DNA of 64,000 nt from assembly GCA_965204735.1 (NCBI GenBank), contig OZ242008.1, forward strand, positions 2,272,001-2,336,000. The letters run 5' to 3'. Source of the DNA: Longimicrobiales bacterium (GTDB lineage: Bacteria > Gemmatimonadota > Gemmatimonadetes > Longimicrobiales > Gaopeijiaceae). Made by a program: the position numbers and the translations under genes. The notes beneath the pieces are model-generated. The model saw nothing but the letters and a program-made list of their open reading frames with translations, made no database searches and was not told the DNA's origin. Below, piece after piece: positions 1 to 27,030 of this stretch (position 1 is its first letter; every line of letters begins with the position of its first letter).

Positions 1-3000
1 CTCGCCGCGCTCGAAGGTGTCGCCCACCGTCGGCGCACTGATCGACAGCCCCGTCACCCCCGGCGGCCCGCGGCTGCCGTCCACCTTGTGCGCAGCAGCG
101 TTCGCAATCGCGTTGCTCCCCAGTCCCAGGCTCGCCGCCGTCGCGCCGTCGCGTGCGTCGGCGATCGCACCGCTGTTCAGCGTCAGCGCGCTCGCGCCGA
201 TGCCGATGCCCGTCGAGTCTGCGTCCGCCGCTGCCACCGTGTAGCGGAACGCCAGCGTCGCCGTGCCCGTGCCGCGCGCGTACTCCGCCTGCCGCGTCTG
301 CGCCCCAATCGTCAACGCCAGATGCGGCGTACCCGTCACCGCCACCCTGCGGTTGAACGTCACCTCCACCTCGATCCGCTCCGTGCGACCGTACGTGCTG
401 TCGCTCGCCGGAGCGCTCGTGATCGCCACCCCGCTCACCGACGCCGCCGTGAACGTGCCGCCCGCGACTTTGTGGCCCGTGTTGTTCGACACCGCGCTCG
501 CGCCCAGCCCCAGCAGCGCGTCCGTCGTACCGCCCGCCACGTCGATCGTCCCGCCGTTCAGCGCCAGCGCGCTCGCGCCGATGCTCAACCCGTCCGCGTC
601 CGCATCGCCACTCGCCACCACGTAGCGGAAGACCAGTGACGCCGTGCCCGTGCCCGCAGCGTAACTCGCCTGCCGCGTCGCAGCGCCGATCGTCAGCGCC
701 AGCTGCGGCGTCCCCGTCACGTCCACCGCCTTGTTGAACGTCACCGTCACCGCAACCGTGTCGCCCCGCTCGAAGGTGTCGCCCACCACCGGCGAAGCGA
801 TCGACAGCGCGGTCACCCCCGGCGGCCCCTGCGCGCCGTCCACCTTGTGCGACGCCGCGTTGGCGATCGCGCTGGACCCCAGGCCCAGGCTCGCCGCCGT
901 CGAGCCGTCGCGCGCGTCGACGATCGTCCCGCCGTTGAGCGCCAGCGCGCTCGCGCCGATGCTCAACCCGTCGCTGTCGGCGTCGGACGCCGCCACCGTG
1001 TAGCTGAACGCCAGCGTCTTCGTGCCGGTGCCGGAGCCGTAGTCCGCCTGCACCGTGTCGGTCCCGACGCCCAGCGCCAGCTGCGGCGTGCCCGTCACGC
1101 TCACCGGCCGCACGAACGTCACCTCGACCTCGATCTCCTCGCCCAGACCGTAGGTGTCCCCGCTCGACGGAGCGCTCGATATCGTCACGCCGCTCACCGA
1201 CGCCGCCGTGAACGTCCCGCCCGCAACCTTGTGCCCCGTGCTGTTCGATATCGCGTGCGTGCCCAGCCCCAGGGTCGCGTCCAGCGTGCCGCCCGACAGA
1301 CGGATCGTCCCGCTGTTCAACGCCAGCGCGCTCGTCCCGATGCTCAGCCCGTCCGCGTCCGCGTCCGCCTGCACCACCGTGTACTGGAATACCAGCGACG
1401 TCGTGCCGCTCCCGCTCGCGTAGCTCGCCTGACGGGTCTGCGTACCGATCCCCAGCGCCAGCTGCGGCGTACCCGTCACGTCCACCGCACGGTTGAACGT
1501 CACTGTCGCCGCAATCACGTCGCCACGCTCGAACGTGTCGCCCGTCGGAGGCGACGCGACGACCAAGCCGCTCACGCCCGGCGGTCCCTGGTTGCCGTCC
1601 ACCTTGTGCGCCGCGGCGTTTGCGATCGCGTTCGACCCCAGGCCCAGCCCCGCCGCCTCGCTCGCGTCACGAGCGTCCGCAATCGTCCCGCCGTTCAGCC
1701 CCAACGCGCTCGCGCCGATGCTGATCCCGTTCGCATCCGCGTCCGCAGCCGCCACCGTGTAGCCGAACGTCAGCGTCGTCGTGCCCGTCCCGCTCGCGTA
1801 GTCCGCCTGCCGCGTCTGCGAACCAATCGTCAGCGCGACCTGCGGCGTGCCCGTCACCGCCACGCGCCGGTCGAACGTCACCTCGACCTCGATCCGCTCC
1901 GTCCGACCGTACGTGCTGTCGCTCGCCGGAGCGCTCGTGATCGCCACGCCGCTCGCCGACGCCGCCGTCAACGTCCCGCCCGCCACGCGGCGCGTGCCGT
2001 CGTTGCTGATCGCGTGATGCGCCAAGCTCAGCAAGGCGTCCGTCGTCCCGCCCGCCACGTCGATCGTCCCGCTGTTCAGCGCCAGCGCGCTCGCGCCGAT
2101 GCTCAACCCGTCGGCGTCCGCGTCCGCCTGCACCACCACGTACCGGAACACCAGCGCCGTCGTCCCCGTCCCCGACGCGTAGCTGGCTTGCCGCGTCTGC
2201 GAACCGATCGACAACGCCAGCTGCGGCGTGCCCGTCACGTCCACCGCCTTGTTGAACGTCACCGTCGCCGCCACCGTGTCGCCCCGCTCGAACGTGGCGC
2301 CCACCAGAGGCGCAGCCACCGACAGCCCCACGACGCCCGGCGGCCCCAAGCTGCCGTTCACCTTGTGCGCCGCCGCGTTCGTCACCGCGCTCGCGCCCAG
2401 ACCCAGCGCAGCTGCCGCAGCGCCCGGACGCACGTCCGCAATCGTCCCGCCGTTCAGCGCCAACGCGCTCGCGCCGATGCTGATCCCGTCCGCGTCCGCG
2501 TCCACCGGACGGACCGCGTAGGCGAACACCAGCGTGTCCGCCTTGCTGGAAGCGGCCATGTAGCTGGCCTGCCGGGTCTGCGTCCCGATCGTCAGCGCCA
2601 GCTGCGGCGAGCCCGTCACTGCCACCGGTCGGCCGAACGCCACCTTCACCTCGATCGACTCGCCCAGCTGGTACGTGCTCGCGCTCGCCGGCGTGCTCGA
2701 CACCGTCACCGCGCTCACTGCCGGCGTCGTGAACGTCCCGCCCGCAACCTTGTGGCCCGTGCTGTTCACCACCGCGCTCGCGCCCATGCCCAAGGTCGCG
2801 TCCAGCGTCCCGCCCGCAACCCGGATCGTGCCGCCGTTCAGCGCCAAAGCGCTCGCGCCGATGCTGATCCCGTCCGCGTCCGCGTCGCCGCTCGCCACCA
2901 CGTACCGGAACACAAGCGTGTCCGTCCCCGTCCCGATCGCGTAACTCGCCTGCCTAGTCGCGCTCCCGATTCCCAGAGCCAGCCGCGGCGTGCCCGTCAC

Positions 3001-6000
3001 GTCCACCGCGCGGTTGAACAGCAGCGACACCTCGATCGTCTCGCCCCGCTCGAAGGTGTCGCCCACCGTTGGCGCACTGATCGACAGCGCCGTCACGCCC
3101 GGCGGACCGCGGCTGCCGTCCACCTTGTGCGCAGCAGCGTTCGCGATCGCGTTCGTCCCCAGTCCCAGGCTCGCAGCCGTCGCGCCGTCGCGCGCGTCGG
3201 CGATCGCACCGCCGTTCAGCGTCAGCGCGCTCGCGCCGATGCCGATCCCCGTCGAGTCTGCGTCCGCCGCTGCCACCGTGTAGCGGAACGCCAGCGTCGT
3301 CGTGCCGCTCCCGCTCGCGTACGCCGCCTGCCGTGTTTGGCTCCCGATCGTCAGCGCCACCTGCGGCGTACCCGTCACCGCCACCCTACGGTTGAACGCC
3401 ACCTCCACCTCGATCCGCTCCGTGCGACCGTACGTGCTGTCGCTCGCCGGAGCGCTCGTGATCGCGACCCCGCTCACCGACGCCGCCGTGAAGGTGCCGC
3501 CCGCAACCTTGTGGCCCGTGCTGTTCGCCACCGCGCTCGCGCCCAGCCCCAGCAGCGCGTCCGTCGTCCCGCCCGCCACGTCGATCGTCCCGCCGTTCAG
3601 CGACAGCGCGCCCGCGCCGATGCTCAACCCGTCGGCGTCCGCGTCGCCGCTCGCCACCACGTAGCGGAAGACCAGCGACGCCGTCCCCGTGCCGCCCGCG
3701 TACGACGCCTGCCGCGTCGCAGAGCCGATCGTCAGCGCCAGCTGCGGCGTGCCCGTCACGTCCACCGCCTTGTTGAACGTGACCGTCGCCGCAACCGTGT
3801 CGCCCCGCTCGAAGGTGTCGCCCACCACGGGCGACGCGACCGACAGCGCGGTCACCCCCGGCGGCCCCTGCGCGCCGTCCACCTTGTGCGACGCCGCGTT
3901 CGCGATCGCGCTCGACCCCAGGCCCAGGCTCGCCGCCGTCGAGCCGTCGCGCGCATCCACGATCGTCCCGCCGTTCAGCGCCAAAGCGCTCGCGCCGATG
4001 CTGATCCCGTCGCTGTCGGCGTCGGACGCCGCGACCGTGTAGCTGAACGTCAGCGTCTTCGTGCCCGTGCCGGAGGCGTAGTCCGCCTGCACCGTGTCGG
4101 TCCCGACATCCAGCGCCAGCTGCGGCGTGCCCGTCACGCTCACCGGCCGCACGAACGACGCCTCGACCTCGATCTGCTCGCCCAGGCCGTAGGTGTCGCC
4201 GCTCGCCGGGCTGCTCGATATCGTCACGCCGCTCACCGACGACGCCGTGAACGTCCCGCCCGCAACCTTGTGGCCCGTGCTGTTGCTCACCGCGTGGCTG
4301 CCCAGCCCCAGCACCGCGTCCGTCGTCCCGCCCGCCACGTCGATCGTCCCGCCGTTCAGCGCCAACGCGCTCGCGCCGATGCTCAACCCGTCCGCGTCCG
4401 CGTCCGCCTGCACCACCACGTACTGGAACACCAGCGCCGCCGTCCCCGTGCCGCCCGCGTACGACGCCTGCCGCGTCTGCGTCCCGATCGTCAGCGCCAG
4501 CTGCGGCGTCCCCGTCACGTCCACCGCCTTGTTGAACGTCACCGTCGCCGCAACCGTGTCGCCACGCTCGAACGTGTCGCCGGTCGGCGGCGACGCAATC
4601 GACGCTCCGCTCACCCCCGGCGGCCCCCGACTGCCGTCCACGGCATGGCCCGCGGCGTCGACGATCGCGTTTCCGCCCAGCCCCAGGTTCGCCGCCGTCG
4701 ATCCGTCGCGGGGGTCCACGATCGTCCCGCCGTTCAGCGCCAGCGCGCTTGCCCCGACGCTGATCCCGTTCGCGTCCGCGTCGCCCGCCGCCACCACGTA
4801 GCGGAACTCCAGCTCGCGGCTGCCCGACGCCGCCGAGTCGTACGCCGCCTGCCGCGTCTGGCTCCCGATCGTCAGCGCCAGCTGCGGCGCGCCCGTCGCC
4901 GTCACGTTGCGGTTGAACGTCACCGTCACATCGATCTGCTCGCCCAGCTCGTACGTGCTCCCGTCCGACGGAGTGCTCGTGATCCCCGCCCAGCTCACCG
5001 CCGGCGCCGTGAACGTGCCGCCCGCCACGCGGAAGCCTGCGGCGTTGCTGATCGCGAGGCGCTCCAGGCTCAGCAGCGCGTCGGCCGTGCCGCCCGCCAC
5101 GTCGATCGTCCCGCCGTTGAGCGTCAGCGCGTTCGCGCCGATGCTGATCCCGTCGGCGTCCGCGTCCGACTGCACCACCACGTAGCGGAACTCCAGCTCC
5201 GTCGCGCCCGTCCCGCTCGCGTACGACGCCTGCCGCGTCGCGCTCCCGATCCCCAGCGCCAGCTGCGGCGTACCCGTCACGTCCACCGCCTTGTTGAACC
5301 GCACGCTTGCGATGATCGTGTCGCCCCGCTCGAAGGTCTGCGCCGACAGCGGCGCCGTGACCGCCAAGTGCGTCACCCCCGGCGGCCCCAGGCTGCCGTC
5401 CACCTTGTGCGCCGCCGCGTTGACGATCGCGTTCGACCCCAGGCCGAGGCTCGCCGCCGTCGCCCCCGCCCGCACATCGTTGATCGTCCCGCCGTTCAGC
5501 GCCAGCGCGCTCGACCCGATGCTGATCCCCGTCGTGTCCGCGTCCGCTGGACGGACCGCATACCCGAACACCAGCGTGTCCGCCTTGCTCGTCGCCGACT
5601 CCCAGCTCGCCTGCCGCGTCTGGCTCCCGATCGTCAGCGCCAGCTGCGGCGCGCCCGTCACCGTCACCGGGCGGCCGAACGCCACCTTCACCTCGATCCG
5701 CTCGCCCAGATGGTACGTGCTGTCGGCCGCCGGTGCGCTCGAGATCGTCACCGCGCTCACCGCCGGCGTCGTGAACGTCCCGCCCGCAACCTTGTGGCCC
5801 CCGCTGTTCGCGATCGCGTACGCGCCCAAGTCCAGCACCGCGTCCAACGCCTCGCCCGACGCCCTGATCGTCCCGCCGTTCAGCGTCAGCGCGCTCGCCG
5901 CGATGCTGATCCCGTCCGCGTCCGAGTCGCCGATCGCCACCACGTAGCGGAACACCAGCGTGTCCGTCCCCGTGCCGCTCGCGTACTCCGCCTGCCGCGT

Positions 6001-18000: not shown

Positions 18001-21000
18001 GGCAAAGGTCACCTCGACTTCGATCTGCTCGCCCAGGACGTAGGTGCTGTCGCTAGCCGGACTGCTCGTGATCGTCACGCCGCTCGCAGCCGCCGCCGTG
18101 AACGTGCCGCCCGCCACCTTGTGGCCCGAGCTGTTCGACACCGCAAGAGAGCCCAGCCCCAGCACGGCGTCCGTCGTCCCGCCCGCCATGTCGATCGTCC
18201 CGCCGTTCAGCCCCAGCGCGCCGGCGCCGATGCTGAGCCCGTCCGCGTCCGCGTCGGCCGCCACCACCGTGTAGCGGAAGACCAGCGACGTCGTCCCCGT
18301 GCCGGAAGCGTACGACGCCTGCCGCGTCGCCGCGCCGATCGTCAGCGCCAGCTGCGGCGTCCCCGTCACGTCCACCGCCTTGTCGAACGTCAGCGTGACC
18401 GAAATCGCCTCGCCCCGTTCGAAGGTGTCGCCCACCACCGGCGACCCGACAGCCACCCCGTCTACCCGAGGCGGACTCCCGGCGCCGTCCACCTTGTGGG
18501 CCGCGGCGTCCGCAATCGCGTGCGTGCCCAGCCCCAGCGCCGCGTTCGTCCCGGCGCCGCTCCGGATCGTCCCGCCGTTCAGCGCCAGCGCGCTCGCGCC
18601 CACGCTGATCCCGGTGCTGTCCGCGTCCGCCGCCTGCACCACGTAGTCGAACGTCAGCGTCTTCGTCCCGCTCCCGCCGGCGTACGACGCCTGCGCCGTG
18701 GCGGCCCCCACTCCCAGCGCCAGCTGCGGGCTCCCCGTCACCGTCACCGGAATCTGGAAGCCGACCTGCACCGAGATCGTGTCGCCCGCCGTGTACGTGC
18801 TGTCGGCGCCCGCGTCGCTGGCGATCACCACCGCAAGCACGGCAGGAACCGTCGTGGCGCCGTCCACCTTGTGGGCCGCGGCGCTCGCAATCGCATTCGC
18901 GCCCAGTCCCAGCGCGGCGTTCGTGCCCGTGCCGCTCCGGATCGTCCCGCCGTTCAGCGACAGCGCGCTCGCGCCCACGCTGATCCCAGCGCTGTCCACG
19001 TCCGTCGCCCGCACCGTGTAGCGGAACGTCAGCGTCTTCGTCCCGCTCCCGCCGGCGTACGACGCCTGCGCCGTGCCGGTCCCGATTCCCAGCGCCAGCT
19101 GCGGGCCCCCCGTCACCGTCACCGGGATCTGGAAGCCGATCCGCACCGCGATCCCGTCGCCGGCGCCGTACGTGCTGTCGCTTCCCGCGTCGCTGAAGAT
19201 CGCTGCCGAGACCACGGCCGGCACCGTCGCCGTCGCGCCGTTCACCTTCCCGGCGGCGACGCCGGCAAGCGCGTGGCTGCCCAAGCTCAGCGCCGCCGCG
19301 GCCCCGAAGGAACTCTGCAACGTGCCGCCGGCCAGCGACAGTGCGCTGTCCGCGACGGAGAATCCGTCGGCGTCCACGTCCGTCGCCCGAACGACGTAGC
19401 CGAACGTCAGGGTCTCCGTCCGGCTGCCGATCAGGTACGACGCCTGCCGCGTCGAGTCTCCGATCGTCAGCGCCAGCTCGGGCACGCCCGTCACGACCAC
19501 GGGAATGCTGAACTCGACCGCCACCTCGATCCGCTCGCCGCCCCCGTACGTGTCGCCGCTGGCCGGCGAACTCGCGACCCTCGCCCCCGTCACCGACGGC
19601 GGCGTCGCCGTGGAGCCGTCCACCTTGTGGCCGCTGGAGTTCGTGATCTGGTGGGTCCTTCCCAGCGCCAGCCTGGCGTTGGTTCCAGCCGCGCTCCGGA
19701 TCGTCCCGCCGTTCAGCGCCAACGCGGTGGGCCCCACGCTGACACCGTCCGCGTCCACGTCGGCGGACTGCACGACATAGCTGAACGCCAGCGACTTGCT
19801 CCCGCTCCCGCCCGCGTACGACGCCTGCACCGTGGCGGCCCCGATCCCCAGCGCCAGCTGCGGGCTCCCCGTCACCGTCACCGGAATCTGGAAGCCGATC
19901 CGCACCGCGATCAGCTCGCCGGCGCCGTACGTGTCTCCCGAAGCCGGGCTCGTGTCGAACCGCGCCGAGGCGACCTCGGGCGGCGTCACGCTCCCGTCGA
20001 TCTGGTCGCTCAGCAGCTCGACGTTCAGCCTCAGCGCCGCATCGGCCCCGCCGGCGCTCTGGATCGTCCCGCCGTTCAGGGTCAACGCCCCGCGCTCGAC
20101 GGTGAACCCGTCCGCGTCCCGGTCCGTCGCCCGCACCGTGTAGTCGAAGGTCAGCGTCTTCGTCCCGCTCCCGCCGGCGTAGGCCGCCTGCACCGTGTCG
20201 GCGTCCAGCGACAGCGCCAGCTGCGGCGTCCCCGTCACCGTCACGGCCAAGTCGAACCCGACCTGCACCGAGATCGTCTCGCCCGCCCCGTACGACCCGC
20301 CGATCGCCGGCTGGCTGGCGGCCGCCACGGACGAGACGGTGGGCGCGGTCGTCGTGCCGTTCACCTTGTGGCCGGCCGCGTTCGCAATGGCGTGGCCGGC
20401 CAAGCTCAGCGTCGCGTTCGCCGCCGTGGCACTCCGGATCGTCCCGCCGTTCAGGGTCAGGGCGCTCCCGCCGACGCCGATCCCGTCGGCGTCCACGTCG
20501 GTGGCGCCCACTTCGTAGTCGAACGTCAGCGTCTTCGTCTGGCTGCCGCTCGAGTAGGACGCCTGCCCGGTACCGCTTCCAATGGTCACCGCCAGCTGCG
20601 GCGTTCCCGTCACGGTCACCGGCACGTTGAACCCGACGGCCACGGAGATCGTATCGGTGGCTCCGTAGGTGTCGCCGTCGTCCGGAGAGCTGCTGATCTC
20701 CACCGAGGTCGCGGCCGGAGTGGCGTTGTTGGAGCCCAACACCTTCTGGCCGGCGGCGTCCTCGATCGCGTGGGCGCCCAAGCCCAGGACCGCGCCGGCG
20801 CCGGCGGCGCTCCGGATCGTCCCGCCGTTCAGCGCCAAGGCGCCCGCCAAGATGCTGATGCCGTTCGCGTCCAAGTCCGCCCGCTGCACGACGTAGCCGA
20901 AGCGCAGCACCTGACCCGTCGTCTCGAGCAACGCCGCTTGGCGCGTCTGGCTCCCGATGCCGATCGCCAGCTGCGGAGCGCCGGAGACCCGAATCGCGAT

Positions 21001-24000
21001 CGCCGCCGCAAACTCCACCTCCACCTCGATCCGCTCCCCGCCTCCGTAGCTGTCCGCGGACGCCACCGGCCGACTCGCGATCCGAACGGCGCTCACGAAC
21101 GGGTTCGGGGCGACGGCGCCGTTCACCTTGTGGCCGGACGCGTCGGAGAGCGCATGACTGCCCAGCCCCAGCGTGGCCGCCGCCCCCGCGTCGCTCCGTA
21201 TCGTGCCGCCGTTGAGCGTCAGTGCGCTCGCGCCGATCCCGATCCCGTTGGCGTCCCGGTCGGCCGCCTGCACGGCGTACTCGAAGTGGAGCGTCCGGCC
21301 CGCCGTCCGCAGGTACGTGGCCTGGCGCGTCTGCGTCCCGATCGTCAGCGCCAGCTGCGGGCTGCCGGTCACGGTGATCGGCAGCCTGAAGGTGACGCTC
21401 GCCCCGATCTTCTCGCCCGCTCCGTACGTGTCGCCGCTGACGGGCGTGCTGGTGACCGCGGCCCCCGTCACGGCGGGCGCGGTGGCGCTGCTGCCGGTCA
21501 CCTTGTGGGTCGCGGCGGCGGTGATCGCATGGCTGCCCAAGTTCAGGCTCGCATTGGTGCCGACCGTGCTCCGAATCGTCCCGCCGTTCAGCGTCAGGGC
21601 ACCCGCGGCGATCCCGATCCCGTCGGCGTCCGAGTCCGAGGAGCGCACCGTGTAGCGGAAGTGCAGCGACTGCCCCGCCGTTCGGGTCAGCGTCGCCTGC
21701 CGGGTCGAGTCCCCGATCGCCAGCGCCAACCGGGGCGCGCCCACGACTCGGATCGGCACCAGGGCGCCGAACCGCACCTCGGCCTCGATCTGCTCGCCCG
21801 CTCCGTAAACGTCGCCGATGACGGGCGTGCTGGTGATCCGAACCAGGTCCACGTTCGGGACGGTGCCCGTGCTCCCGTCCACCTTGTGGCTCGCGTTGGC
21901 CGCGTACGCGTAGGCCCCCAAGCCGAGCAGCGCCGCCCTGCTGTTGACGCCGATGATCGTCCCGCCGTTCAGCTTCAGGGCGCCCGCGGCGATCCCGATT
22001 CCGTCGGCGTCCACGTCGGCCGTCTCCACCGTGTAGCGGAAGTGGATCGTACTGGGCCGAGAGGGCAGGCGTACGCCAAATGCTTGCTTGACGCTGTCCC
22101 CGATCGTCAGCTCCAGCAGCGGTTCGCCGGTCACGGCGACCGAGTCGCTGAAGTCCACTTCGACCCGAACGACCTCTCCCGCCCCGTACGTGTCGCCGGT
22201 GCGCGGCCCGTTGGCGAAGCGCACGCCGCTGACGACCGTGACGGCGACCGGCGTCGCCCTGACTTCGGAGCTCTCCGAGCCGGTCCCGTTGGCGTTCGCC
22301 GCTCGCACCTGGAACTTGTACGCGGCGCCGTTCGTCAGCGACCCCACCGTGTAGCTGGTCGTGGTCGCGCTGCTTCCCGAGATGTCGGTCCAGCCCGAGT
22401 ACGAACCAGCCGCCGGCCCGTGCCGGACCTGGTAGCCGACGATCGTGGTGTCCTGCGGATCGGTCCAGTTCAAGGTCGCTTGCGCATTGCCCGGAGTCGC
22501 GGTCAACCCCGTGGGCGCCGCGGGAACCGATCCTGTTGGCGTGGCAGAAGCGTTGACCTTGTGGCCGGGGGCGTTGACGATCTGATTTGTGCCGATCGCC
22601 GGGGAGACTAGGCTGAAGCTTGGCCGGTAGACGTAGAGCTCTCTGGTGTACGTAAACGCTTGGGGGTCCCAGGTACCGAAGTCCAGTGCATTCGGTCCGA
22701 TGCTGATGCCGTCCGGGTCGTGGTCGTCGCTCACAACGGTGTAACGGTAGTCGAAATAGGTATAATGCATCGTAAGGCCTCCACTCTCGCCCTGGCTCGT
22801 GCGTGTACTGCTGCCGATTTGCAAACTGAGTATAGGTCCCCATGAGTCCGAATCGATGTCATGTCCGTCGATCACGTGGAACCTCACTCGTATTTCTTCT
22901 CCAGTGCGGTAGCTGGCCCCGGTCCGAGGGCTGCTTGTAATCTCGACCCGGTTGATCCGGGCCCTGAACAGGCCGATCGTTGTGAAGGCCGCGTCTCCCG
23001 CCGCGGTACCGACCGTGGCTCGCAGTTCGATCCGGTAGGGCCGGCCTCCGTTCGATACCGTGACTTCGCCGGAGGTCGTCGTCGCACTGCTGGAAGGAAT
23101 GTTCGTCCACCCGGTGAAAGCACCGCCGTCCGACGGTCGGTAGCGATACTGATACCCCGTGATCAAGCTGTTGCCGGGGTTGATCCAGTCGAGCCTGGCC
23201 TGGGTGGCGCCCAAAGGGGTGGCGGTCAGCCCGCTGGGCGCCGCCGCCACCTTGCGTCCGTCGACCGCGTGGTCCGAGGCGTCCGAGATCGCGTGGCCGC
23301 CCAGGCCCAGCCTGGCGTTGATTGCCGTGGCGCTCCGGATCGTGCCCCCGTTGAGCCCCAGCGCGGTCGCTCCGACGCTGATCCCGTTGCCGTCCCTGTC
23401 CGCCGCCACCACCGTGTAGCTGAAGGTGAGCGTCTTCGTCCCGCTCCCGCTTGCGTACGAGGCCTGTCGCGTGGCGCTCCCGATCGTCAGCGCCAACCGA
23501 GGCGTCCCGGTTACGGTCACGGCGATGCTGAAGCCGACCTGCACGGAGATCGTGGCGCCCAGCGTGTACGTGCCCCCTCTCGGCGTGCTGGAGATCGTCA
23601 CGGACGCCACCGTCGGCGCTGTCGTGCTCCCGTTCACCTTGTGCGCCGCCGAGTTCGAGATCGCGTGCGTGCCCAAGGCCAGCGCGGCGGTCGCGCCCCC
23701 CGCGCTCCGGATCGTGCCGCCGTTCAGCCCCAGGGCGCCGGCCGCGATGCTGATCCCGTCGTTGTCCCGGTCGCCGGCCACCGTTTCGTAGCTGAAGGTG
23801 AGGGTCTTGGAACCGCTCCCGCTCGCGTAGGCCGCGTAGCGCGTGGCGCTCCCCACCGTCACCGCCAGTCGGGGGGCGCCCGTCACCGTCACCGCCAGAT
23901 TGAACGCGACCTGCACCGAGATCGTCTCTCCCGCCCCGTAGGTGCTGTCGCTCGCCGGGCTGCTCGCGATCGCGACGGAGGCGACCGCCGGCACCGTCCT

Positions 24001-26982
24001 GGTCCCGTTCACCTTGTGGGCGGGCACGTTGGAGAACGCGTGGCTTCCCAGCCCCAGCGTCGCGGCGGCGCCCGTCCCGCTCCGGATGCTTCCGCCGTTC
24101 AGCTCCAGCGCGTTCGCGCCCACGCTGATCCCGTCCGCGTCCAAGTCCGTCGCGAGCGTCTCGTAGCTGAACGTCAACGCGCTCGTTCCGTTCCCGCTCG
24201 CGTAGGCCGCGTGACGGGTGGCGCTCCCGATCGTCAGGGCCAGCCGGGGCGTGCCCGTGACCGTCACGGCGAACCCGAACGACACCCGCACCGAGATCGT
24301 CTCGGCCGCTGCGTAGGTGTCCCCGCTGTCCGGCCTGCTCGTGACGAGAACGTTGGTCACCGCAGGCATCGTCCTGCTCCCGTCCACCTTGTGGCCCGAG
24401 GCACTGCTGATCGCGTGCGTGCCCAGGCCTAGCGTGGCGTTCTGGGCCGACTCGCTGACGATCGACCCGCCGTTGAGCGTCAGCGCGCCGGACCCGACGC
24501 TGATTCCGTCGCGGTCCCGGTCCGTCGCGCGCGCAACGTAGCTGAACGTCAGCGTGCCGGTCCCGGTTCCGCTGGCGTACTCGGCGTGCCGGGTCCTCTC
24601 GCCAATTCCCAGCGCCACGCGGGGCGTGCCCGTCACGCTCACCGGCGTGGTGAAGCCGATCTGCACCGAGATCGTGTCGCCCGCTCCGTAGGTGTCGCCG
24701 CTGGCCGGCGCGCTCGCAATCGACGCCGCGCGCACCGCGGGAACCGTCGCCGTGCTGCCGTTCACCTTGTGGCCCGAGGCGTTGGTGACCGCGTGAGCGC
24801 CCAGCGCCAAGGTGGCGTTCGCCCCGGCCGCGCTCCGGATCGTGCCGGAGTTGAGCGCCATGGCGAACACCGAGACGCCGTCCGCGTCCCTGTCCGCCGA
24901 CCGCACGACGTAGCGGAAGGCCAGCTTCTTGCTGCCGCTCCCGCTCTGATATGCGGCCGTCTTGGCCAGCGAACCGACCGTCAAGGAGACGGTGGGGCTC
25001 CCGGTGACCGTCACCGGCGCCGTGAACCCGACTTCCACGCGAACCGCCTCGCCGGCGCCGTAGGTGTCTCCGCTCGCCGGCGCGCCGACGACCGCCACCG
25101 AACTCACGGTGGGCGTGGTGGCGGTCGTCCCGACCACCCGGTGGCCCGACGCATTGGATATGGCGTGGCTTCCCAGATCCAGGTTCGCGGCGGCGCCGGC
25201 CGTGCTCCGAATCGTCCCGCCGTTCAGTTGCAGGGCGGTCGTCCTGATGCTGATCCCGTCGGGGTCGAGATCGCGGCTGGTCACCACGTACCCGAAGTGC
25301 AGCGACTGGCCCGACGTTCTGCGCAACGTCGCGAACGCAGGCCCGCCGCCGAAAGCGATCTGCAACCGGGGACTGCCGACGACCCGGATCGGAACCGCGG
25401 CAGCGAACTCGACCTCCACCTCGATCAGCTCGCCGCCCCCGTACACTTGGGCGCTCAACGAAGGAGTGCTGGTGATGCGCACGCCGCTCACGCTCGGCGC
25501 GGTTGCCGAGGCGCCGTTCACCTTGTGGCTCGCATTGGCCGAGAAGGCGGCGGCCCCCAGGCCGAGCCCGGCGTTCCGCGTTCCGCCGACCTCCTTGATC
25601 GTCCCGCCGTTGAGCGCGAGCGCGTTGGCGGCGACGCCGATCCCGTCCAAGTCCGAATCCCCCGCCTGCACGACGTACCGAAACCCGATGCTGTTCGACC
25701 CGACGCTCTCGTAGGCGGCGTGGCGCACGGCGCTGCCGACCGTCAGCGCCAGCCGAGGCGCGCCGGTCAACGCGATCGGCGCGCTGAACTGCACTTCCAG
25801 TTGGACAACCTCGCCGGCGCCGTAGGTGTCGCCCGCAAGAGGCGTGCCGACGAAGCGCACTGCCGACACCAGCGGAAGTGTGGTCGGCGTCGCCTTGGCT
25901 TCGCTCGTCGAGCCGGCCCCGGCGCCGTTCCTGGCCCGGAGCTGAAACTTGTACTTGCTTTCATTCGTCAGCGGACGGACCACGTGGCGGGTGGTGGTGG
26001 CGTCGCTGCCCGCGATCGTCGTCCAGCTCGACGGGTAGCTGGCCGTATCCAGGGCGTGGCGAACTTCGTAGCTGCCGATGGTGGAGTTCCCGGGGTCGGT
26101 CCACGTCAGCGTCGCTTGGCCCGGCGCCGCCGTCGCGGCTAGCCCGGCGGGGGCGGCCGGGGCGGCGAGCGCGCCGTTGACCTTGTGCCCGGCGGCGTCG
26201 ACGATGCGGTGCCGGCCGATCGTCATGGTGGGGTGGCCGCCCCAGGCGTAGAAGAGATCGGCGTCGCTCAGCGCGTTGGGACCGATGCTGATCCCGTCGC
26301 TGTCCACGTCCGCCGTTTGGACGGTGTAGCTGAACGTATGCGTGGCCTGACCACGAGCGGTGTAGTTCCATGTCGCCCGTCGGCTGGCGCCGCCGATCGT
26401 GATGTCCAGGTACGGATGGCTCAGACCAGCGTAGCGGACGCTGTTATTCCACCTGACCGCTACCACAATCGTCTCGCCGGCGGCGTACGTGTCGCCCGTC
26501 GGCGAACTCGTGATCGAAACGCCGCTGATCGGCACGTTGGCCGTACTGACTCTCGTCCTGCTCGCCCCGCCGCAGTCAGCGCCGGCGCAGGCCCTGATTT
26601 CGAATTGGTACCGCCTGGGGCTGCTCAGGCCTCCGACCGTGGCCGAAGTCGTGCTGCTGTCGCTGCTTGCGACGTCCGTCCATTGATTGGGGAGATTGGT
26701 TCTGTACAAGGCGTAGCGGTACTGGTACTTGGTGATCGCCGCGTTGCCCGGGTTGTCCCAGCCCAGATCGATCGACGAGGTGGTGGCTTGGTGGGCCCAG
26801 AACCCGGTCGGCGCCGCAGGCGCCTGAGCGGCGGCAGGGCCTGCCGGGGCGAACACCGACGCAACTCCGGCGAACGCGAGGGCCGCGACCACGCAAGACC
26901 GCTTGGCTTGATGCCAGGCTTGGCGCCAATCGGAACCCGGCAAGCCGAACAAGCGCGCGCCCGTTCCTCGAATCACTGGCAT
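1..26982 (-). CDS. Giant repetitive secreted surface protein / adhesin (at least 8994 aa, 3' end outside the window): signal peptide, six FN3 domains, about 65 Ig-like DxDxDG repeats
   Basis: I translated the minus frame with codons at plus positions 1-3, 4-6, etc. by hand at 1-60, 6121-6180, 22621-22920 and 26821-27420 and found no stop. The ORF track lists no minus ORF in this frame below 28255, and the long antisense shadow ORFs (847, 9613, 22861, 24586, 26185) all share this register. From ATG 26982 the N-terminus reads MPVIRGTGARLFGLPGSDWRQAWHQAKRSCVVAALAFAGVASVFAPAGPAAA|QAPAAPTG, which looks like a Sec signal. The start is uncertain because there are in-frame ATGs at 27147 and 27207. 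Confidence 0.9.
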   Translation of the reverse strand, partial: MPVIRGTGARLFGLPGSDWRQAWHQAKRSCVVAALAFAGVASVFAPAGPAAAQAPAAPTGFWAHQATTSSIDLGWDNPGNAAITKYQYRYALYRTNLPNQWTDVASSDSSTTSATVGGLSSPRRYQFEIRACAGADCGGASRTRVSTANVPISGVSITSSPTGDTYAAGETIVVAVRWNNSVRYAGLSHPYLDITIGGASRRATWNYTARGQATHTFSYTVQTADVDSDGISIGPNALSDADLFYAWGGHPTMTIGRHRIVDAAGHKVNGALAAPAAPAGLAATAAPGQATLTWTDPGNSTIGSYEVRHALDTASYPSSWTTIAGSDATTTRHVVRPLTNESKYKFQLRARNGAGAGSTSEAKATPTTLPLVSAVRFVGTPLAGDTYGAGEVVQLEVQFSAPIALTGAPRLALTVGSAVRHAAYESVGSNSIGFRYVVQAGDSDLDGIGVAANALALNGGTIKEVGGTRNAGLGLGAAAFSANASHKVNGASATAPSVSGVRITSTPSLSAQVYGGGELIEVEVEFAAAVPIRVVGSPRLQIAFGGGPAFATLRRTSGQSLHFGYVVTSRDLDPDGISIRTTALQLNGGTIRSTAGAAANLDLGSHAISNASGHRVVGTTATTPTVSSVAVVGAPASGDTYGAGEAVRVEVGFTAPVTVTGSPTVSLTVGSLAKTAAYQSGSGSKKLAFRYVVRSADRDADGVSVFAMALNSGTIRSAAGANATLALGAHAVTNASGHKVNGSTATVPAVRAASIASAPASGDTYGAGDTISVQIGFTTPVSVTGTPRVALGIGERTRHAEYASGTGTGTLTFSYVARATDRDRDGISVGSGALTLNGGSIVSESAQNATLGLGTHAISSASGHKVDGSRTMPAVTNVLVTSRPDSGDTYAAAETISVRVSFGFAVTVTGTPRLALTIGSATRHAAYASGNGTSALTFSYETLATDLDADGISVGANALELNGGSIRSGTGAAATLGLGSHAFSNVPAHKVNGTRTVPAVASVAIASSPASDSTYGAGETISVQVAFNLAVTVTGAPRLAVTVGSATRYAAYASGSGSKTLTFSYETVAGDRDNDGISIAAGALGLNGGTIRSAGGATAALALGTHAISNSAAHKVNGSTTAPTVASVTISSTPRGGTYTLGATISVQVGFSIAVTVTGTPRLALTIGSATRQASYASGSGTKTLTFSYTVVAADRDGNGISVGATALGLNGGTIRSATAINARLGLGGHAISDASDHAVDGRKVAAAPSGLTATPLGATQARLDWINPGNSLITGYQYRYRPSDGGAFTGWTNIPSSSATTTSGEVTVSNGGRPYRIELRATVGTAAGDAAFTTIGLFRARINRVEITSSPRTGASYRTGEEIRVRFHVIDGHDIDSDSWGPILSLQIGSSTRTSQGESGGLTMHYTYFDYRYTVVSDDHDPDGISIGPNALDFGTWDPQAFTYTRELYVYRPSFSLVSPAIGTNQIVNAPGHKVNASATPTGSVPAAPTGLTATPGNAQATLNWTDPQDTTIVGYQVRHGPAAGSYSGWTDISGSSATTTSYTVGSLTNGAAYKFQVRAANANGTGSESSEVRATPVAVTVVSGVRFANGPRTGDTYGAGEVVRVEVDFSDSVAVTGEPLLELTIGDSVKQAFGVRLPSRPSTIHFRYTVETADVDADGIGIAAGALKLNGGTIIGVNSRAALLGLGAYAYAANASHKVDGSTGTVPNVDLVRITSTPVIGDVYGAGEQIEAEVRFGALVPIRVVGAPRLALAIGDSTRQATLTRTAGQSLHFRYTVRSSDSDADGIGIAAGALTLNGGTIRSTVGTNASLNLGSHAITAAATHKVTGSSATAPAVTGAAVTSTPVSGDTYGAGEKIGASVTFRLPITVTGSPQLALTIGTQTRQATYLRTAGRTLHFEYAVQAADRDANGIGIGASALTLNGGTIRSDAGAAATLGLGSHALSDASGHKVNGAVAPNPFVSAVRIASRPVASADSYGGGERIEVEVEFAAAIAIRVSGAPQLAIGIGSQTRQAALLETTGQVLRFGYVVQRADLDANGISILAGALALNGGTIRSAAGAGAVLGLGAHAIEDAAGQKVLGSNNATPAATSVEISSSPDDGDTYGATDTISVAVGFNVPVTVTGTPQLAVTIGSGTGQASYSSGSQTKTLTFDYEVGATDVDADGIGVGGSALTLNGGTIRSATAANATLSLAGHAIANAAGHKVNGTTTAPTVSSVAAASQPAIGGSYGAGETISVQVGFDLAVTVTGTPQLALSLDADTVQAAYAGGSGTKTLTFDYTVRATDRDADGFTVERGALTLNGGTIQSAGGADAALRLNVELLSDQIDGSVTPPEVASARFDTSPASGDTYGAGELIAVRIGFQIPVTVTGSPQLALGIGAATVQASYAGGSGSKSLAFSYVVQSADVDADGVSVGPTALALNGGTIRSAAGTNARLALGRTHQITNSSGHKVDGSTATPPSVTGARVASSPASGDTYGGGERIEVAVEFSIPVVVTGVPELALTIGDSTRQASYLIGSRTETLTFGYVVRATDVDADGFSVADSALSLAGGTLQSSFGAAAALSLGSHALAGVAAGKVNGATATVPAVVSAAIFSDAGSDSTYGAGDGIAVRIGFQIPVTVTGGPQLALGIGTGTAQASYAGGSGTKTLTFRYTVRATDVDSAGISVGASALSLNGGTIRSGTGTNAALGLGANAIASAAAHKVDGATTVPAVLAVVIASDAGADSTYTAGDTISVQVGFQIPVTVTGSPQLALGVGAATAQASYAGGSGTKTLTFDYVVQAADADSTGISVGASALALNGGTIRSGAGTNAALGLGTHAIADAAAHKVDGAGSPPRVDGVAVGSPVVGDTFERGEAISVTLTFDKAVDVTGTPQLALTIGAATRQASYASGTGTTSLVFRYTVVAADADADGLSIGAGALGLNGGTIDMAGGTTDAVLGLGSLAVSNSSGHKVAGGTFTAAAASGVTITSSPASDSTYVLGEQIEVEVTFARPVAVTGTPQLALTIGAATRQADYASGTGTKTLSFAYAVAAADTDADGIGIGASALGLNGGAIADARDSTTVASLGLGANAISNSAAHKVNGARGPPGVTGLAVGSPVVGDTFERGDTIAATVTFNKAVDVTGTPQLVLTIGAATQQAGYASGTGTASLVFRYVVASGDADADGLSIGAGALGLNGGTIDVAGGTTDALLGLGAHVLSNSSGHKVAGGTFTAAAVSGVAIASSPASDSTYGLNERIEVKVAFSRRVSVTGTPQLALTIGAATRQAEYASGTGTDTLSFAYTVGVADADSDGLGIGASALTLNGGAVADARDGATAAGLGLGTNAIAAAAAHKVDGTRGPPTVTGVAVGSPVVGDTFERGDTIAVTVTFHKAVDVTGTPQLALTIGAATRQAGYASGTGTASLVFRYVVASGDADADGLSIGASALTLNGGTIDEAGGTTDAALGLGSHAVSNSSGHKVAGATFTAAAVTGVTITSRPASDSTYGAGDRIEVEVTFARSVAVTGTPQLALTIGAATRQADYVAGTGTKTLAFRYAVAATDSDSDGISIGASALTLNGGGIADARDGATAAGLGLGANAVSNSAAHKVNGSLATLAAPSGLTATPTASGAIQLRWTDPSDTTITKYQVRHRNESSSGSFTAWADVASSGASTTSHTVSSLTDQVDYRFELRAVAGSRAGRASFALARPSDIWVTGVRITSSPTADDTYGPGQTIEVTVSFSAFRPRVTGSPVLKIGVGTATRDAAYSGTGLTSARFQYTVTAADADSDGISIGPNALDFTAGWVNTRFSIASPTIGRYAIANSASHKVDGLLGTPAAPTGFSASPGNAQVTLNWTDPSDTTLTGYQFRQAIATEPFSRWTDISGSDASTTSHIVPSLSNGTEYKFQVRAQNSVGAGHASEEARATPTSAPVVTAVRFVGTPVSGDTYGAGEVVRVDVEFSAVLTVTGSPRLALTIGAAARQAAMERVRERAVRFAYTVRSGDVDADGIGVAAAALTLGGGTISGPGGASAQLSLGARAFTANAAHKVNGATATAPFVDFVQITSSPSSGDTYGGGERIDVHVRFGAAVPITVVGSPRLALTVGAQTRQATLSRASGQSLHFGYVVQAADADADGVSIGASALTLNGATIRSGAGAAAGLGLGAHAVADASGHKVSGSTATAPAVSAVSITSAPASGDTYGAGEKITARVSFQLPIVVAGTPRLALAVGSQTRQAEFVRLSGQSMYFDYTVLSSDADADGISIAANALSLNGGTILSTIGTAAALGLGAHAVANASGHKVSGSTATTPEATSVSVTSAPVSGDTYGAGERIEVKVGFNLEVRTTGSPQLVLGVGAATRQAALLGGDGAGLTFGYVVQSADVDADGISVGASALGLNGGTIASTAGATAALGLGGHAIANASAHKVNGASATTPAVVSASVTSAPASGDTYYAGEAIAVAVGFDVPVAVTGAPQLALTIGAQTRQAAYVSGTNTKTLTFRYTVVLADSDSTGIAVGASALGLNGGTIRSGVGTNAGLGLGAHAIADAAGHKVDGTSTAPTVNAASIASTPATGDSYGAGETIAVEIGFNFPVTVTGTPRAALTIGAATRHADYASGSGNTSLRFEYVVDATDADADGISLAAGALELNGGTVRSSVGTDAALGLGSYAIADASAHKVNGAATAPAVTGATIVSDAGNDSTYAAGDAVSVEVAFQIPVTVTGTPQLALTIGTGVGQAAYAGGTGTKTLTFSYTVRATDVDGNGIAVAANALTLNGGALQSGAGTNAALSLGTFAIADAAAHKVDGTSTVPVVTGVAVASSPAGSDTYGAGETISVRVGFSIPVTVTGAPQLAVAVGSATRQVAYASGSGTTALVFDYVTLATDRDDDGISVGAGALTLNGGTIRSGSGTNATLALGSHAIANASGHKVNGAATAPLVSSMSISSAPASGDTYGGGEKITVSVVFQIPVTVTGTPQLALTVGNATRQADYASGSGTAALAFDYVVQTADSDSNGISVGPTALTLNGGTVRSAAGTNANLSLFVNAFSNSPDHKVDGSSATTPTVRAATIGSDAGADSTYFAHDAIVVEVGFSVPVTVTGAPQLVLTIGAQTRQASYASGSGTTALTFRYVVTAADSDSDGIAVGASALALNGGTIRSSVGADATLGLGANAIAAAAAHKVDGSQGPPGVTGVTVGSPVVGDAFERHDTIAVTVTFDQAVDVTGTPQLALTIGTATKQASYAGGTGTTALVFRYVVASGDVDADGLSIGAGALALNGGTIDEAGGTTDAVLGLGAHAVSNSSGHKVAGNTFTAASVSGVTISSTPPGTDSTYGLGDVIEVQVTYTRPVVVQGTHLLKLAVNIGTQTPYASYASGTGTKTLTFRYTVQASDSDSDGIGLPARALTLSGATISDARDGTTATSNGLGTHVITAAAAHKVDGSQGTAGVTALAIGSPPVGDAFERGDTIVVTVTFNKAVDVTGTPQLALGIGAATRQASYASGTGTAALVFRYVVVQADADADGLSIGAGALALNGGTIDVAGETTDALLGLGSRAVSNSSGHKVAGGTFTAASVSGVSITSSPSSDSTYGFGEQIEVQVAFNRRVSVTGTPQLALTIGAQTRQAAYASGTGTTTLTFRYAVGTADSDSDGIGIGASALALNGGAIADARDGSTAAGLGLGTNAIAAAAAHKVDSARGPPGVAGVAVASPVVGDTFERGDTIWVTVTFNKAVDVTGTPRLFLTIGTQTPTASYASGTGTTALRFRYVVAAGDADADGLSVAASALHLAGGTIDAAGDTTNASLSLGAHTLSNSSGHKVAGGTFTAAAVSGMSITSSPAADSTYGLGEQIEVQATFSRRVSVTGTPQLALTIGAQTRQAEYASGTGTTVLTFRYAVAVADADSDGIGIGASALTLNGGAIADARDGSTAAGLGLGANAVTAAAAHKVDGAQGAAGVTGVSIGDPVVGDTFERADTIAVTVTFNKAVDVTGAPQLALTIGAVTRQAAYASGTGTASLVFRYVVVQADADADGLSIGASALSLNGGTIDVAGETTDALLGLGSHAVSNSTGHKVAGGTLTGPAPSGVAIASTPSSDSTYGRTERIEVEVTFVRPVVVTGTPQLALTIGTQTRQASYASGTGTATLAFRYTVQGTDRDSTGLSVGASALALNGGTIADARDGTTAATLGLGAHAVSNAAAHKVDGSLGTPGVIGVSFADDPYNAEYERGDAIDVRVSFSRTVDVTGTPRLALGIGSQTRQAAYASGTGTNTLVFRYVVVQSDRDIDGISIGASALTLNGGTIRAAGTTMDAVLGLGSHAITNSSSHQVNGSLFTGLAVEDVVVRSVPASDSTYKLGERIELDVLFQRAVVVTGTPQLALGIGSATRQASYASGSGTKRLRFRYAVAAADVDADGISLSASALTLNGGTINDARAGGSAAGLGTSASVFSNDAAHKVNGGVGAPSVSALTIGAPVVGDVFERGDTIVATVEFNAAVAVTGTPQLALGIGSATRQAGYASGTGTASLVFRYVVVAADADADGLSVGASALALNGGTIRRTGTTTDAVLDLGAHAVTNSAGHKVAGGTFTAAAVSGVSIASVPGSDSTYVRTERIEVEVSFARPVTVTGTPQVALGIGSQTRQAAYASGSGTKTLTFRYAVQAADSDSDGISIGASALGLNGGTIVDARDGATAAGLGLGSHAIANAAAHKVDGARGPPGVSGLSIASPVVGDTFERGDTIAVTVTFTDSVDVTGTPRLALGIGSATQQASYASGTGTASLVFRYVVASGDADADGLSIGASALALNGGMIDVAGGTTDALLGLGSHAVSNSTGHKVAGGTFTAASVSGVTIASTPASDSTYAETEEIAVEVSFNRRVTVTGTPQLALAIDTLTRQAEYVDGTGTATLTFAYQVVAADADSTGLSIGASALGLNGGTIADARDGTTAASLGLGSNAVSDAAAHKVDGSLPPPPTRTTGAPEARGLAIGAPAVGDTFERGETIEVELVFHRAVDVTGAPQLALAIGAATRQAEYASGTGTDTLVFRYVVAIGDSDADGISIAASALTLNGGTIRASGEALDAVLDLGAYAIANSGGHKVAGGTFTTPAVSAVTISSAPAADSTYHLGERIEVKVAFGRPVTVTGAPQLALTIGSQTRQASWESATSKADTLVFGYAVRPADADTTGISIGSSALALNGGTINDVRAGATAASLGLGSNAIVNAAAHKVDGSLGPPGVTHLAVTAPLSAQTFERGDTIIASVRFNKAVDVTGTPQLALGIGSATRQASYASGTGATELEFRYVVVQSDADADGISIGANALTLNGGTIDVAGGTADALLSLERLAISNAAGFRVAGGTFTAPAVSWAGITSTPSDGSTYELGEQIDVTVTFNRNVTATGAPQLALTIGSQTRQAAYDSAASGSRELEFRYVVAAGDADANGISVGASALALNGGTIVDPRDGSTAANLGLGGNAIVDAAGHAVDGSRGPPGVSGASIASPPTGDTFERGDTVAATVTFNKAVDVTGTPQLALTIGTQTRQASYAGGTGTAALVFQYVVVQADADADGLSIGASALALNGGTIDVAGGTTDAVLGLGSHAVSNSTGHKVAGGTFTASSVSGVTISSSPASGDTYGLGEQIEVEASFVRPVSVTGTPQLALDVGTDTVQADYASGTGTKTLTFSYTVAASDADSDGISIGASALALNGGTIVDARDGSTAASLGLGSSAIANAASHKVDGAQGPPGVTALSVASPVVGDTFERGDTVAATVTFNKAVDVTGTPQLALTIGSATRQASYAGGTGTASLVFRYVVASGDADADGLSIGAGALSLNGGTIDVAGGTTDALLGLGASAVANSTGHKVAGGTFTAASVSGVAITSAPASDSTYGRTERIEVEVAFNRRVAVTGTPQVALTIGSQTRQAAYASGSGTTTLAFRYTVAAADADSTGIGIGASALTLNGGAIADARDGATAASLGLGTNAIANAAAHKVDGSRGPPGVTALSISAPTVGDTFERGETIEVSLLFNRAVDVTGTPRLALGIGSATRQASYAIGTGTDTLVFRYVVASGDADADGISIGASALALNGGTIRVAGGTLDATLGMGASAVVNSTGHKVAGGTFTTPAVSAVTVSSTPASASTYQLGESIEVKVAFGRPVAVTGSPQLALTIGTQTRQASYMAASSKADTLVFAYAVRPVDADADGISIGASALALNGGTIADVRPGAAAAALGLGASAVTNAAAHKVNGSLGPPGVVGLSVAAPLVGATFERGDTVAATVTFNKAVDVTGTPQLALSIGSQTRQASYASGTGTTALVFRYVVVQADADADGLSIGASALALNSGTIDVAGGTTDALLSLAHHAISNDGTRRVAGGTLTAASASGVAITSAPASDSTYGRTERIEVEVTFDRRVAVTGTPQVALTIGSQTRQADYASGTGTTTLTFGYTVAAADADANGISIGASALGLNGGTIADARDASEAAGLGLGSNAIANAAAHKVDGNQGPPGVSGLVVASPPTGDTFERGDVIAATVTFNRAVDVTGTPQLALGIGTQTRQASYASGSGTTSLVFQYTVVQADADADGLSIGTSALALNSGTIRLSGGTLDATLGLGTHAISNSTGHKVAGGTFTAASVSGVTISSAPSSGDTYGLGEEIEVEVTFVRPVSVTGTPQLALGVGTDTVQADYGSGTGTKTLAFSYTVAASDADSDGLSIGASALALNGGTIVDARDGSTAASLGLGSSAIANAASHKVDGAQGPPGVTALSIASPVVGDTFERGDTVAVTVTFNKAVDVTGTPQLALTIGAATRQASYAAGTGTASLVFRYVVASGDADADGLSIGASALALNGGTIDVAGGTTDALLGLGASAVSNNTGHKVAGGTFTAASVSGVAITSAPASDSTYGRTERIEVEVTFNRRVAVTGTPHLALTIGAQTRQAEYARGTGTATLAFRYTVAAADADSTGIGIGASALTLNSGAIADARDGATAASLGLGSNAIANAAAHKVDGSRGPPGVTGLSISAPTVGDTFERGE
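15255..16195 (-). other. FN3 - variant repeat - FN3 cassette 3 (within the giant CDS)
   Basis: The motifs are AAPSGLTATP...IQLRWTDP...ITKYQVRH...LTDQVDYRFELRA and PAAPTGFSASPGNAQVTLNWTDP...LSNGTEYKFQVRAQNSVGAG. Boundaries are approximate. Confidence 0.8.
22245..23250 (-). other. FN3 - variant repeat - FN3 cassette 2 (within the giant CDS)
   Basis: The motifs are AAPSGLTATP...ARLDWINP...ITGYQYRY...YRIELRA and PAAPTGLTATPGNAQATLNWTDP...LTNGAAYKFQVRAANANGTG. Boundaries are approximate. Confidence 0.8.
25875..26820 (-). other. FN3 - variant repeat - FN3 cassette 1 (within the giant CDS)
   Basis: FN3 hallmarks are present: PAAPTGF...IDLGWDNP...ITKYQYRY...GLSSPRRYQFEIRA and PAAPAGL...ATLTWTDP...YEVRH...LTNESKYKFQLRARNGAGAG. 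Boundaries are approximate. Confidence 0.8.
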
Positions 26983-27009
26983 CGCGACGGTTGCGGGGGA
27001 CCAAACAAA

Positions 27010-27030
27010 GGGGGGGGGGGGGGGGGGGGG
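27010..27030. repeat. G21 (C21 on the minus strand) homopolymer tract, a candidate phase-variation simple sequence repeat
   Basis: The sequence reads ccaaacaaa-G21-cggagacac, 27 nt upstream of ATG 26982 of the giant gene. Confidence 0.9.

Follow-up and report, generated by a model that had tools for sequence, protein, structure and literature searches.

What product is encoded by the first 27 kb of this window (the whole stretch of 64,000 nucleotides that was analysed), and how might so large a protein be exported, displayed and controlled? The preliminary description had claimed a hidden minus-strand frame of at least 27 kb (about 9000 aa or more) that continues past position 1. One minus-strand frame is indeed free of stops from window position 27669 to base 1 (9,223 codons), and the proposed translation into the adjoining left sequence places the stop at C1:2258906-2258908 of the genome sequence, 13 kb beyond the window, behind a predicted C-terminal barrel. 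Segments that were previously unread hold no in-frame stop either, across 13,587 codons from stop to stop. From ATG 26982, the gene measures 40,077 bp and encodes 13,358 aa with a predicted mass of 1.31 MDa, within a host genome that is a single contig of 4.14 Mb.

Extent, parts and conservation of the giant gene

The codon-position GC of the window part of the gene (0.64/0.59/0.93) resembles that of real genes of the GC-rich host genome. The long plus-strand frames lying over it were rejected as antisense shadows (GC1 0.94-0.95, 26-31% Arg), and Rfam gave 0 matches over the window. The ORF tool reports the giant frame solely as an ORF leaving the window end, which would explain its absence from the ORF track. 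The giant gene is intact and conserved, and its parts are as follows.

1..26982, minus strand: giant gene, in-window part, residues 1-8994 of 13,358; the rest runs left to genome C1:2258906
26824..26982, minus strand: predicted Sec signal peptide, aa 1-53 (by inspection), with a long n-region, an h-region at ~30-48 and AAA-Q
25882..26823, minus strand: cassette 1, the N-terminal tip, FN3 - divergent repeat R1 - FN3
23254..25881, minus strand: repeats 2-8 (repeat HMM)
22246..23253, minus strand: cassette 2, FN3 - divergent repeat R9 - FN3
16204..22245, minus strand: repeats 10-25 (repeat HMM)
15256..16203, minus strand: cassette 3, FN3 - divergent repeat R26 - FN3
73..15255, minus strand: repeats 27-66, alternating A/B units that lead into an 8-unit (~1,013-aa) super-repeat continuing past the window
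Left of the window, minus strand: repeats 67-90, five cadherin-like domains (aa 12038-12540) and a Big_9-like domain
Left of the window, minus strand: C-terminal linker helix (aa 12635-12662), then a Gly-rich insert
Left of the window, minus strand: 12-strand autotransporter-like barrel (aa 12931-13170) and six more predicted strands (aa 13178-13354)

The domain order is signal, F-R-F-R7-F-R-F-R16-F-R-F-R64, five cadherin-like domains (C5), and barrel, where F is FN3 and R is a repeat. Pfam recognizes six FN3 stretches (E 2.4e-57), and the repeat HMM finds 90 units of ~125 aa, 66 of them wholly in the window; the six FN3 domains and about 65 beta-rich repeats described earlier are thus borne out. 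The signal peptide claimed at the same time is of the Sec type by inspection, the most hydrophobic 19-mer of the protein being residues 30-48, followed by AAA-Q at 53/54. A and B units take turns along the array, with identities of 15-96% between units (mean 55%), and the 8-unit super-repeat occupies the distal third. DxDxxG is present in 90/90 units and the stricter DxDx[DN]G in 81/90. Pfam detected no protease domain in the giant protein. The Pfam matches DUF6998 and RabGGT_insert on the repeats were set aside because no single stretch passes alone. The protein also contains 21 RGD tripeptides, 19 inside the repeat array and mostly as FERGD in alternate units (window 1-17700 and beyond), a recurrence that may merely mirror the repeat consensus. 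At the stop, the giant gene is adjoined by the gene of a secreted protein (L001:3912-4904, minus strand), which presumably has a metallo-beta-lactamase-fold motif; this gene is not conserved behind other barrel paralogs.

The longest exact DNA repeat inside the giant gene is 80 bp. Together with the divergence of the units and the homologues in four related genomes, this largely excludes an assembly artefact. All three congeners searched carry giants of 10,722-13,057 aa. Among 60 other genomes of the family, many of which are fragmented drafts where absence is not established, six match the repeat, and one from another genus (G068) has a 13,298-aa frame. All three cassettes recur in the 13,057-aa homologue of G002, and 40 of the 42 domains compared show 88-99% identity, the exceptions being the first FN3 (57%) and R9 (61%) of cassette 2; in this comparison, cassette 2 is a divergence hotspot. 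Repeat counts between cassettes are 7/22/56 in the G002 homologue versus 7/16/64 in the giant gene. Synteny is absent, as the G002 and G003 homologues occupy other chromosomal sites. Contigs from independent studies cover the 5' region of the giant gene. It is accordingly highly improbable that the array is an artefact or a silent relic, since the small internal repeat, the diverged units, the 13,587 codons without a stop, the close G002 homologue and the independent contigs all argue against it. Frame breaks in two related giants would fit such a reading, as would the 0 RNA runs listed among those holding the stretch, a count that says nothing on expression.

Predicted folds and the proposed surface tether

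The model of a repeat pair consists of two all-beta domains (pLDDT 96). Its closest counterparts by structure are Ig-like sandwiches, one at Z 8.3 (rmsd 2.7 over 93 aligned residues) and one at Z 7.1; these matches are weak, as are those to adhesin stalks (Z 5.7-6.4, with FdeC, InvD, MpIBP and invasin at 5.7-6.2). The pair has no match in the PDB by sequence, and in the Atlas the repeat reaches unnamed or partly Big_5/Big_12 clusters only, with a recognition score below threshold. The repeat is predicted to be an Ig-like sandwich without a close solved relative.

The model of the C-terminal 734 aa comprises a helix, a low-confidence Gly-rich insert and 18 long strands (mean pLDDT 62; 299/734 residues below 50). 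Against 48,161 chains, its seven best matches are classical autotransporters at Z 17.1-20.0, including Hbp (Z 20.0, rmsd 3.9, 249 aligned), NalP (19.7), AIDA-I (19.4) and EstA (18.3), with the next family at 14.4; BrkA holds the top rank in Foldseek. EspP aligns to model residues 9-546, through its own final residue. The autotransporter matches stop at residue 546-579, and extra strands lie at 554-564 and 646-730, an extension common to the aligned relatives that may either enlarge the barrel or form a separate sheet. Trp is the last residue in 53/65 aligned barrel relatives, and the Atlas neighbours of the region are named autotransporter beta-domains (0.95-0.97). Pfam finds 0 families on these 734 aa and PF03797 in 2/65 aligned members; PF03797 is present in some database homologues, such as P0078 (45% identity). 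PDB sequence matches of the barrel profile were discarded as chance Eph-receptor matches. Relatives of the barrel, at 30-44% identity, are spread over the genomes of numerous phyla (141 loci, of which 80 were kept), and the nearest named database homologues carry the Gemmatimonadota label. Genes for a BamA-family protein and TamB are present in the host genome. In P0090 and P0103, a barrel-region match over 92-96% of the length is accompanied by TonB-dependent receptor families, and these proteins are possible fusions.

The giant product is probably an autotransporter-like surface tether whose expression the C21 run at the gene start would likely switch by slippage. This reading joins the observed frame, domain order, repeat motif, paralog family, block sharing and tract position with folds that are predicted. 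The full sequence and the fold searches support the giant Ig-like surface filament with an autotransporter-type barrel that had been proposed, and both a predicted export signal (Sec) and a predicted anchor (the C-terminal barrel) are present. The signal peptide would take the chain through Sec, and the barrel would insert in the outer membrane and thread out ~100 predicted Ig-like domains, with export presumably beginning at the barrel-proximal cadherin-like domains. Outside the cell, Ca2+ at the DxDxxG motif would fold and stiffen each repeat. The available part of the MpIBP report gives ~190 A per four domains (PMC4083281), and scaling this to ~100 domains would yield a rod of roughly 0.45-0.5 um, which is an extrapolation and not a measurement. 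The three FN3-variant repeat-FN3 cassettes are likely binding heads, with sponge matrix, host cells and other symbionts as candidate targets. Slippage in C21 would turn expression on and off, recombination of unlinked paralogs would reshuffle the stalks, and tracts that vary independently would allow cells to differ in the subset of the repertoire that they display.

The same export could also serve a spacer or shield that keeps host phagocytes, phages or neighbours away, and not an adhesin, which is considered unlikely. Nine giants in five genomes (G000, G001, G002, G003 and G068) fall within 10,722-13,358 aa although their repeat order differs, whereas the non-giant barrel members of the host genome are below 6,300 aa. 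This narrow band possibly marks a length optimum, which selection on length would explain, or a ceiling on export or gene stability, which would not favour a spacer. Some giants lack any FN3 cassette, and no known ligand-binding domain was found in the giant protein by Pfam or by a PDB sequence search with the repeat pair. Conversely, FN3-flanked divergent repeats stand at the tip, one cassette diverges far faster than the stalk, and adhesion and spacing can coexist. A shade less likely again is cleavage of the passenger after export, which would be laid down as extracellular matrix or pieces and would leave no single cell-anchored filament. According to the available part of one review, many type Va passengers are cut at or near the linker (PMC9289746), and an intact chain of 13,000 residues would be hard to maintain. 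The missing protease domain speaks against cleavage, and so does the lack of a conserved partner gene downstream of the 17 paralogs described below. The tether is the preferred reading.

The poly-C run and the paralogous repertoire

The start of the giant gene carries the following features, including a poly-C run that the preliminary description had passed over.

27010..27030, minus strand: run of 21 C on the coding strand (C21), which ends 27 nt before ATG 26982 and is a putative site of slipped-strand switching
27037..27054, minus strand: candidate upstream starts GTG 27054 and GTG 27039, in frame with the gene across C21
27147 and 27207, minus strand: more in-frame candidate ATGs

The giant gene is not a one-off. 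The host genome has 17 genes with this barrel, which make up 7.3% of its length, and three of them encode ~13,000 aa; the barrel HMM first missed the two longest intact proteins and later recovered them in pieces. Twelve of the 27 C/G runs of at least 12 bases in the genome sit at the starts of these 17 genes, compared with 0.008 expected if the paralogs, which are related, are treated as independent. All 12 are C on the sense strand, and five of the 17 genes, including one of the three giants, have no long run. The other 15 runs measure 12-36 bases and are not associated with barrel genes; several of them closely follow an ATG. Tract lengths among paralogs are 13-33. In congeners, 21 of 40 fetched stretches have a C run at the barrel-gene start and two a G run, while ~12 located starts have none; these are biased rates, as the stretches were picked partly for having a run. 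The closest homologue, L097 (G002:C1:1804394), has a G12 on the sense strand in place of C21 and a different leader, and its tract may have been replaced or have arisen twice. The giant of G068 (L147; G068:C1 ~2196500-2196830) likewise combines a run (C26) with an ATG upstream of it and a signal peptide, but this peptide is out of frame with the 13,298 codons that follow, which amounts to a second frame break past the run. Loss of mismatch repair was rejected, as MutS and MutL are present in the host genome, a point that counts against the switching model.

Contigs bridging 26995-27043 are 10 bases shorter than the window in X10 (depth 39) and X12 (18) and 11 shorter in X9 (2.7); the three belong to one study, X9 and X10 to the same sample, and homopolymer lengths are error-prone. 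The length difference is known for the 49-base zone holding the run, and we infer that the 10-11 bases were lost from the run itself. In X1, X3 and X6 contigs break off at the run; this was not taken as switching, as sequencing error gives the same result, and the X6 contig implies at least 19 G only if its flank equals that of the window. Upstream of the run, window 27143-27171 is duplicated with 32 further letters in X9, X10, X12 and X6.

The C run is taken, with a slight preference, as a frame-dependent switch. In 15/33 tract genes, an ATG whose frame stays open into the run is located at most 15 nt upstream, versus 12% in controls; for a distance of up to 60 nt the figures are 27/33 versus 38%. 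This excess speaks for a frame switch of the kind described for NalP and MspA. The giant of G068, from another genus, repeats this upstream-ATG layout. By arithmetic, C21 fuses the upstream GTGs of the giant gene to its frame. With ten bases fewer, the leader would end 7 nt into the gene, where a +1-frame TGA follows the A of ATG 26982 by 7 nt; with eleven fewer, it would extend 404 nt beyond the ATG. A transcriptional or 5'-UTR dial, in which translation always starts from ATG 26982 and tract length sets the amount and not the frame, is less probable but deserves serious weight. Beyond the run, every tract gene retains an ATG that begins a signal peptide of its own; upstream and downstream starts do not differ in Shine-Dalgarno strength; and within 60 nt upstream the giant gene offers GTG but no ATG. 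Moreover, four tracts (genome C1:1448582, L103, L116 and L120) are of a promoter type. In three of these genes C19-C33 stands directly before TTGACA, which at C1:1448582 is separated from TATAGA by a 17-nt spacer; in the fourth, the spacer of TTGACT-18-TATAAT is occupied by G14. Against the dial stand the excess of open upstream ATGs over both controls and the G068 layout, and no sigma-70 promoter was found at 26700-27800 of the window.

The window contains part of a second family member and two blocks that the giant gene shares with a third.

56631..64000, minus strand: 3' part of a paralog, 3,550 codons from stop to stop, with 17 repeats, cadherin-like domains and barrel
11083..17682, minus strand: block A, aa 3101-5300, 91-99% DNA identity and collinear with an unlinked paralog at genome 2.79 Mb
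5383..8982, minus strand: block B, aa 6001-7200, 93-99% identical to the 2.79-Mb paralog

That the giant might end like the paralog at 56631 had been raised as a possibility, and their C-termini are 80% identical; that paralog has its own C28 run (67180-67207 on the window scale). When the giant gene is divided into 133 tiles of 300 bp, 47 reach 95% identity or more with another paralog, and 86 resemble a paralog more closely than the G002 homologue. The order of the blocks is swapped in the 2.79-Mb paralog, where block B lies directly before block A, and the G002 counterpart of that giant has no FN3 cassette; block transfer from the giant gene to the 2.79-Mb paralog would be the simplest reading. 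The cadherin region is 94-96% identical to paralogs versus 71-80% to G002, a pattern as in concerted evolution. Judged from these comparisons, unlinked paralogs would recombine and reshuffle their stalks, and the family appears both switched and shuffled. The third giant paralog (genome C1:2771492-2811507) has 12,966 codons, no long C run and a frame change inside the barrel, continued in a 433-codon frame, which is either a real break or an assembly error.

The RNase G encoded in the window shares 73% identity with its counterpart in a Longimicrobiales genome, compared with 37-43% for four other phyla. Five of the 17 sequencing runs holding the stretch are labelled sponge metagenome and most others are coded or marine, so that the host is likely a sponge-associated Gemmatimonadota. 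Cadherin and FN3 domains are enriched in sponge symbionts according to the available part of one study (PMC10947273). A bolder proposal, which is doubtful, is a distinct sponge-symbiont autotransporter subtype with a barrel of up to 18 strands, a periplasmic insert and a 12,600-residue Ig-like passenger, under a three-state leader switch, with block exchange amounting to pathogen-style antigenic variation in a mutualist. A short upstream frame would slip on the C run and fuse to the gene; or its leader would stop on the signal-peptide ATG and hand over the ribosome by translational coupling; or the leader would read past that ATG, which would be the off state. A +1-frame stop at -2 to +13 of the signal-peptide ATG is found in 29/30 tract genes (after dropping three promoter-type cases, and with five starts hand-picked) versus 401/911 first ATGs genome-wide (44%). 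The signal for translational coupling is weakened by 11/14 tract-less relatives with an ATG, which have the stop as well. Leader frames of the 30 tract genes are 16 (+1), 10 (fused) and 4 (+2), with p 0.027 on related rows. If true, antigenic variation would be at work in a mutualist whose animal host lacks adaptive immunity.

Should export proceed as predicted, the passenger would greatly exceed in length the autotransporter adhesins that the available parts of the cited papers name, and would bear on the chain-length limit of type V secretion. The extra strands and the insert, common to sponge-associated lineages of many phyla, are a concrete testable feature. A barrel family at 7.3% of the genome, apparently switched and shuffled, points to strong selection on the symbiont surface, and attachment of sponge symbionts and their avoidance of being eaten become testable with single domains. 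The giant gene also exemplifies a class that short-read assemblies and fixed windows cut up.

Comparison with known systems

RTX and Bap-type adhesins: The preliminary description had likened the protein to LapA, SiiE and Bap. The likeness holds for the build and fails for the export, as the protein has no RTX nonapeptide and no LPxTG but a cleavable N-terminal signal and a C-terminal barrel. LapA and SiiE, which we take to be RTX-type giant adhesins, are excluded as models by 0 nonapeptides (GGxGxDxUx) in the giant protein together with its signal peptide and barrel. The staphylococcal type of Bap has a C-terminal LPxTG anchor, and the giant was rejected as a member because LPxTG is absent from its last 80 aa. 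The RTX giant adhesins MpIBP/MpAFP, as far as the available text goes, share ~100 tandem Ig-like units, which are predicted in the giant, a similar mass (1.3 MDa for the giant vs 1.5 MDa) and an acidic motif that suggests Ca2+ stiffening (PMC4083281), and MpIBP chains are among the weak fold matches of the giant repeat. Unlike theirs, the units of the giant are diverged and not identical, and its N-terminal signal and C-terminal barrel would make the anchor C-terminal and the tip N-terminal.

Inverse autotransporters: Type Ve proteins (intimin, invasin, FdeC, InvD) likewise have a long Ig-like stalk and a 12-strand barrel, with weak fold matches (Z 5.7-6.2), and their export is described, in the available part of one review, as driven by sequential folding (PMC6555100). 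The order is opposite in the giant, whose N-terminus consists of FN3 and repeats and whose barrel is C-terminal; this assignment was therefore rejected.

Classical autotransporters: Type Va proteins (Hbp, NalP, AIDA-I, EstA, EspP, BrkA) share the order signal peptide, passenger, helical linker and C-terminal barrel, with structural matches of Z 17-20 including the helix, and BamA is present in the host genome. In contrast, the passenger of the giant is ~12,600 aa of predicted Ig-like sandwiches and not a beta-helix, as characterised type Va passengers mostly are in the available parts of two reviews (PMC6555100, PMC9289746). A ~270-aa Gly-rich insert also separates the helix from the barrel, strand 12 is followed by six more predicted strands that aligned relatives keep, and the giant protein has no Pfam PF03797 match. 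The giant is best filed as a type Va-like variant because the Pfam signature fails and extra strands follow the modelled barrel. Within the limited coverage of the open literature, no type Va barrel exporting a passenger of this length was found.

Contingency loci: A long 5' homopolymer on a surface-protein gene, present here as C21 and at 12/17 barrel genes, is also the trait of poly-C NalP and MspA, multi-start lic2A and promoter-type porA/fetA/opc in the available part of one review (PMC4235727). The present case differs from these loci in that tracts of 13-33 C stand at the head of a whole set of paralogs in an uncultured symbiont, in that the run is followed by a second ATG that begins its own signal peptide, and in that switching is a prediction. 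Open-literature searches, with most subscription journals outside their coverage, returned nothing published on this family, nor on a coupled-leader switch.

Omnitrophota giants: Proteins of more than 30,000 aa in Omnitrophota are described as repeat-rich, tied to attachment and hidden by assembly breaks (10.1101/2023.11.21.568195). Gemmatimonadota, sponge and cadherin go unmentioned in the available part of that work, and the 13,358-aa giant differs in being shorter and in its domains. Each part of the present system thus has a precedent, and what is new is the combination and the scale: a 12,600-aa Ig-like passenger on an extended barrel, within a repertoire that is shuffled and probably phase-variable.
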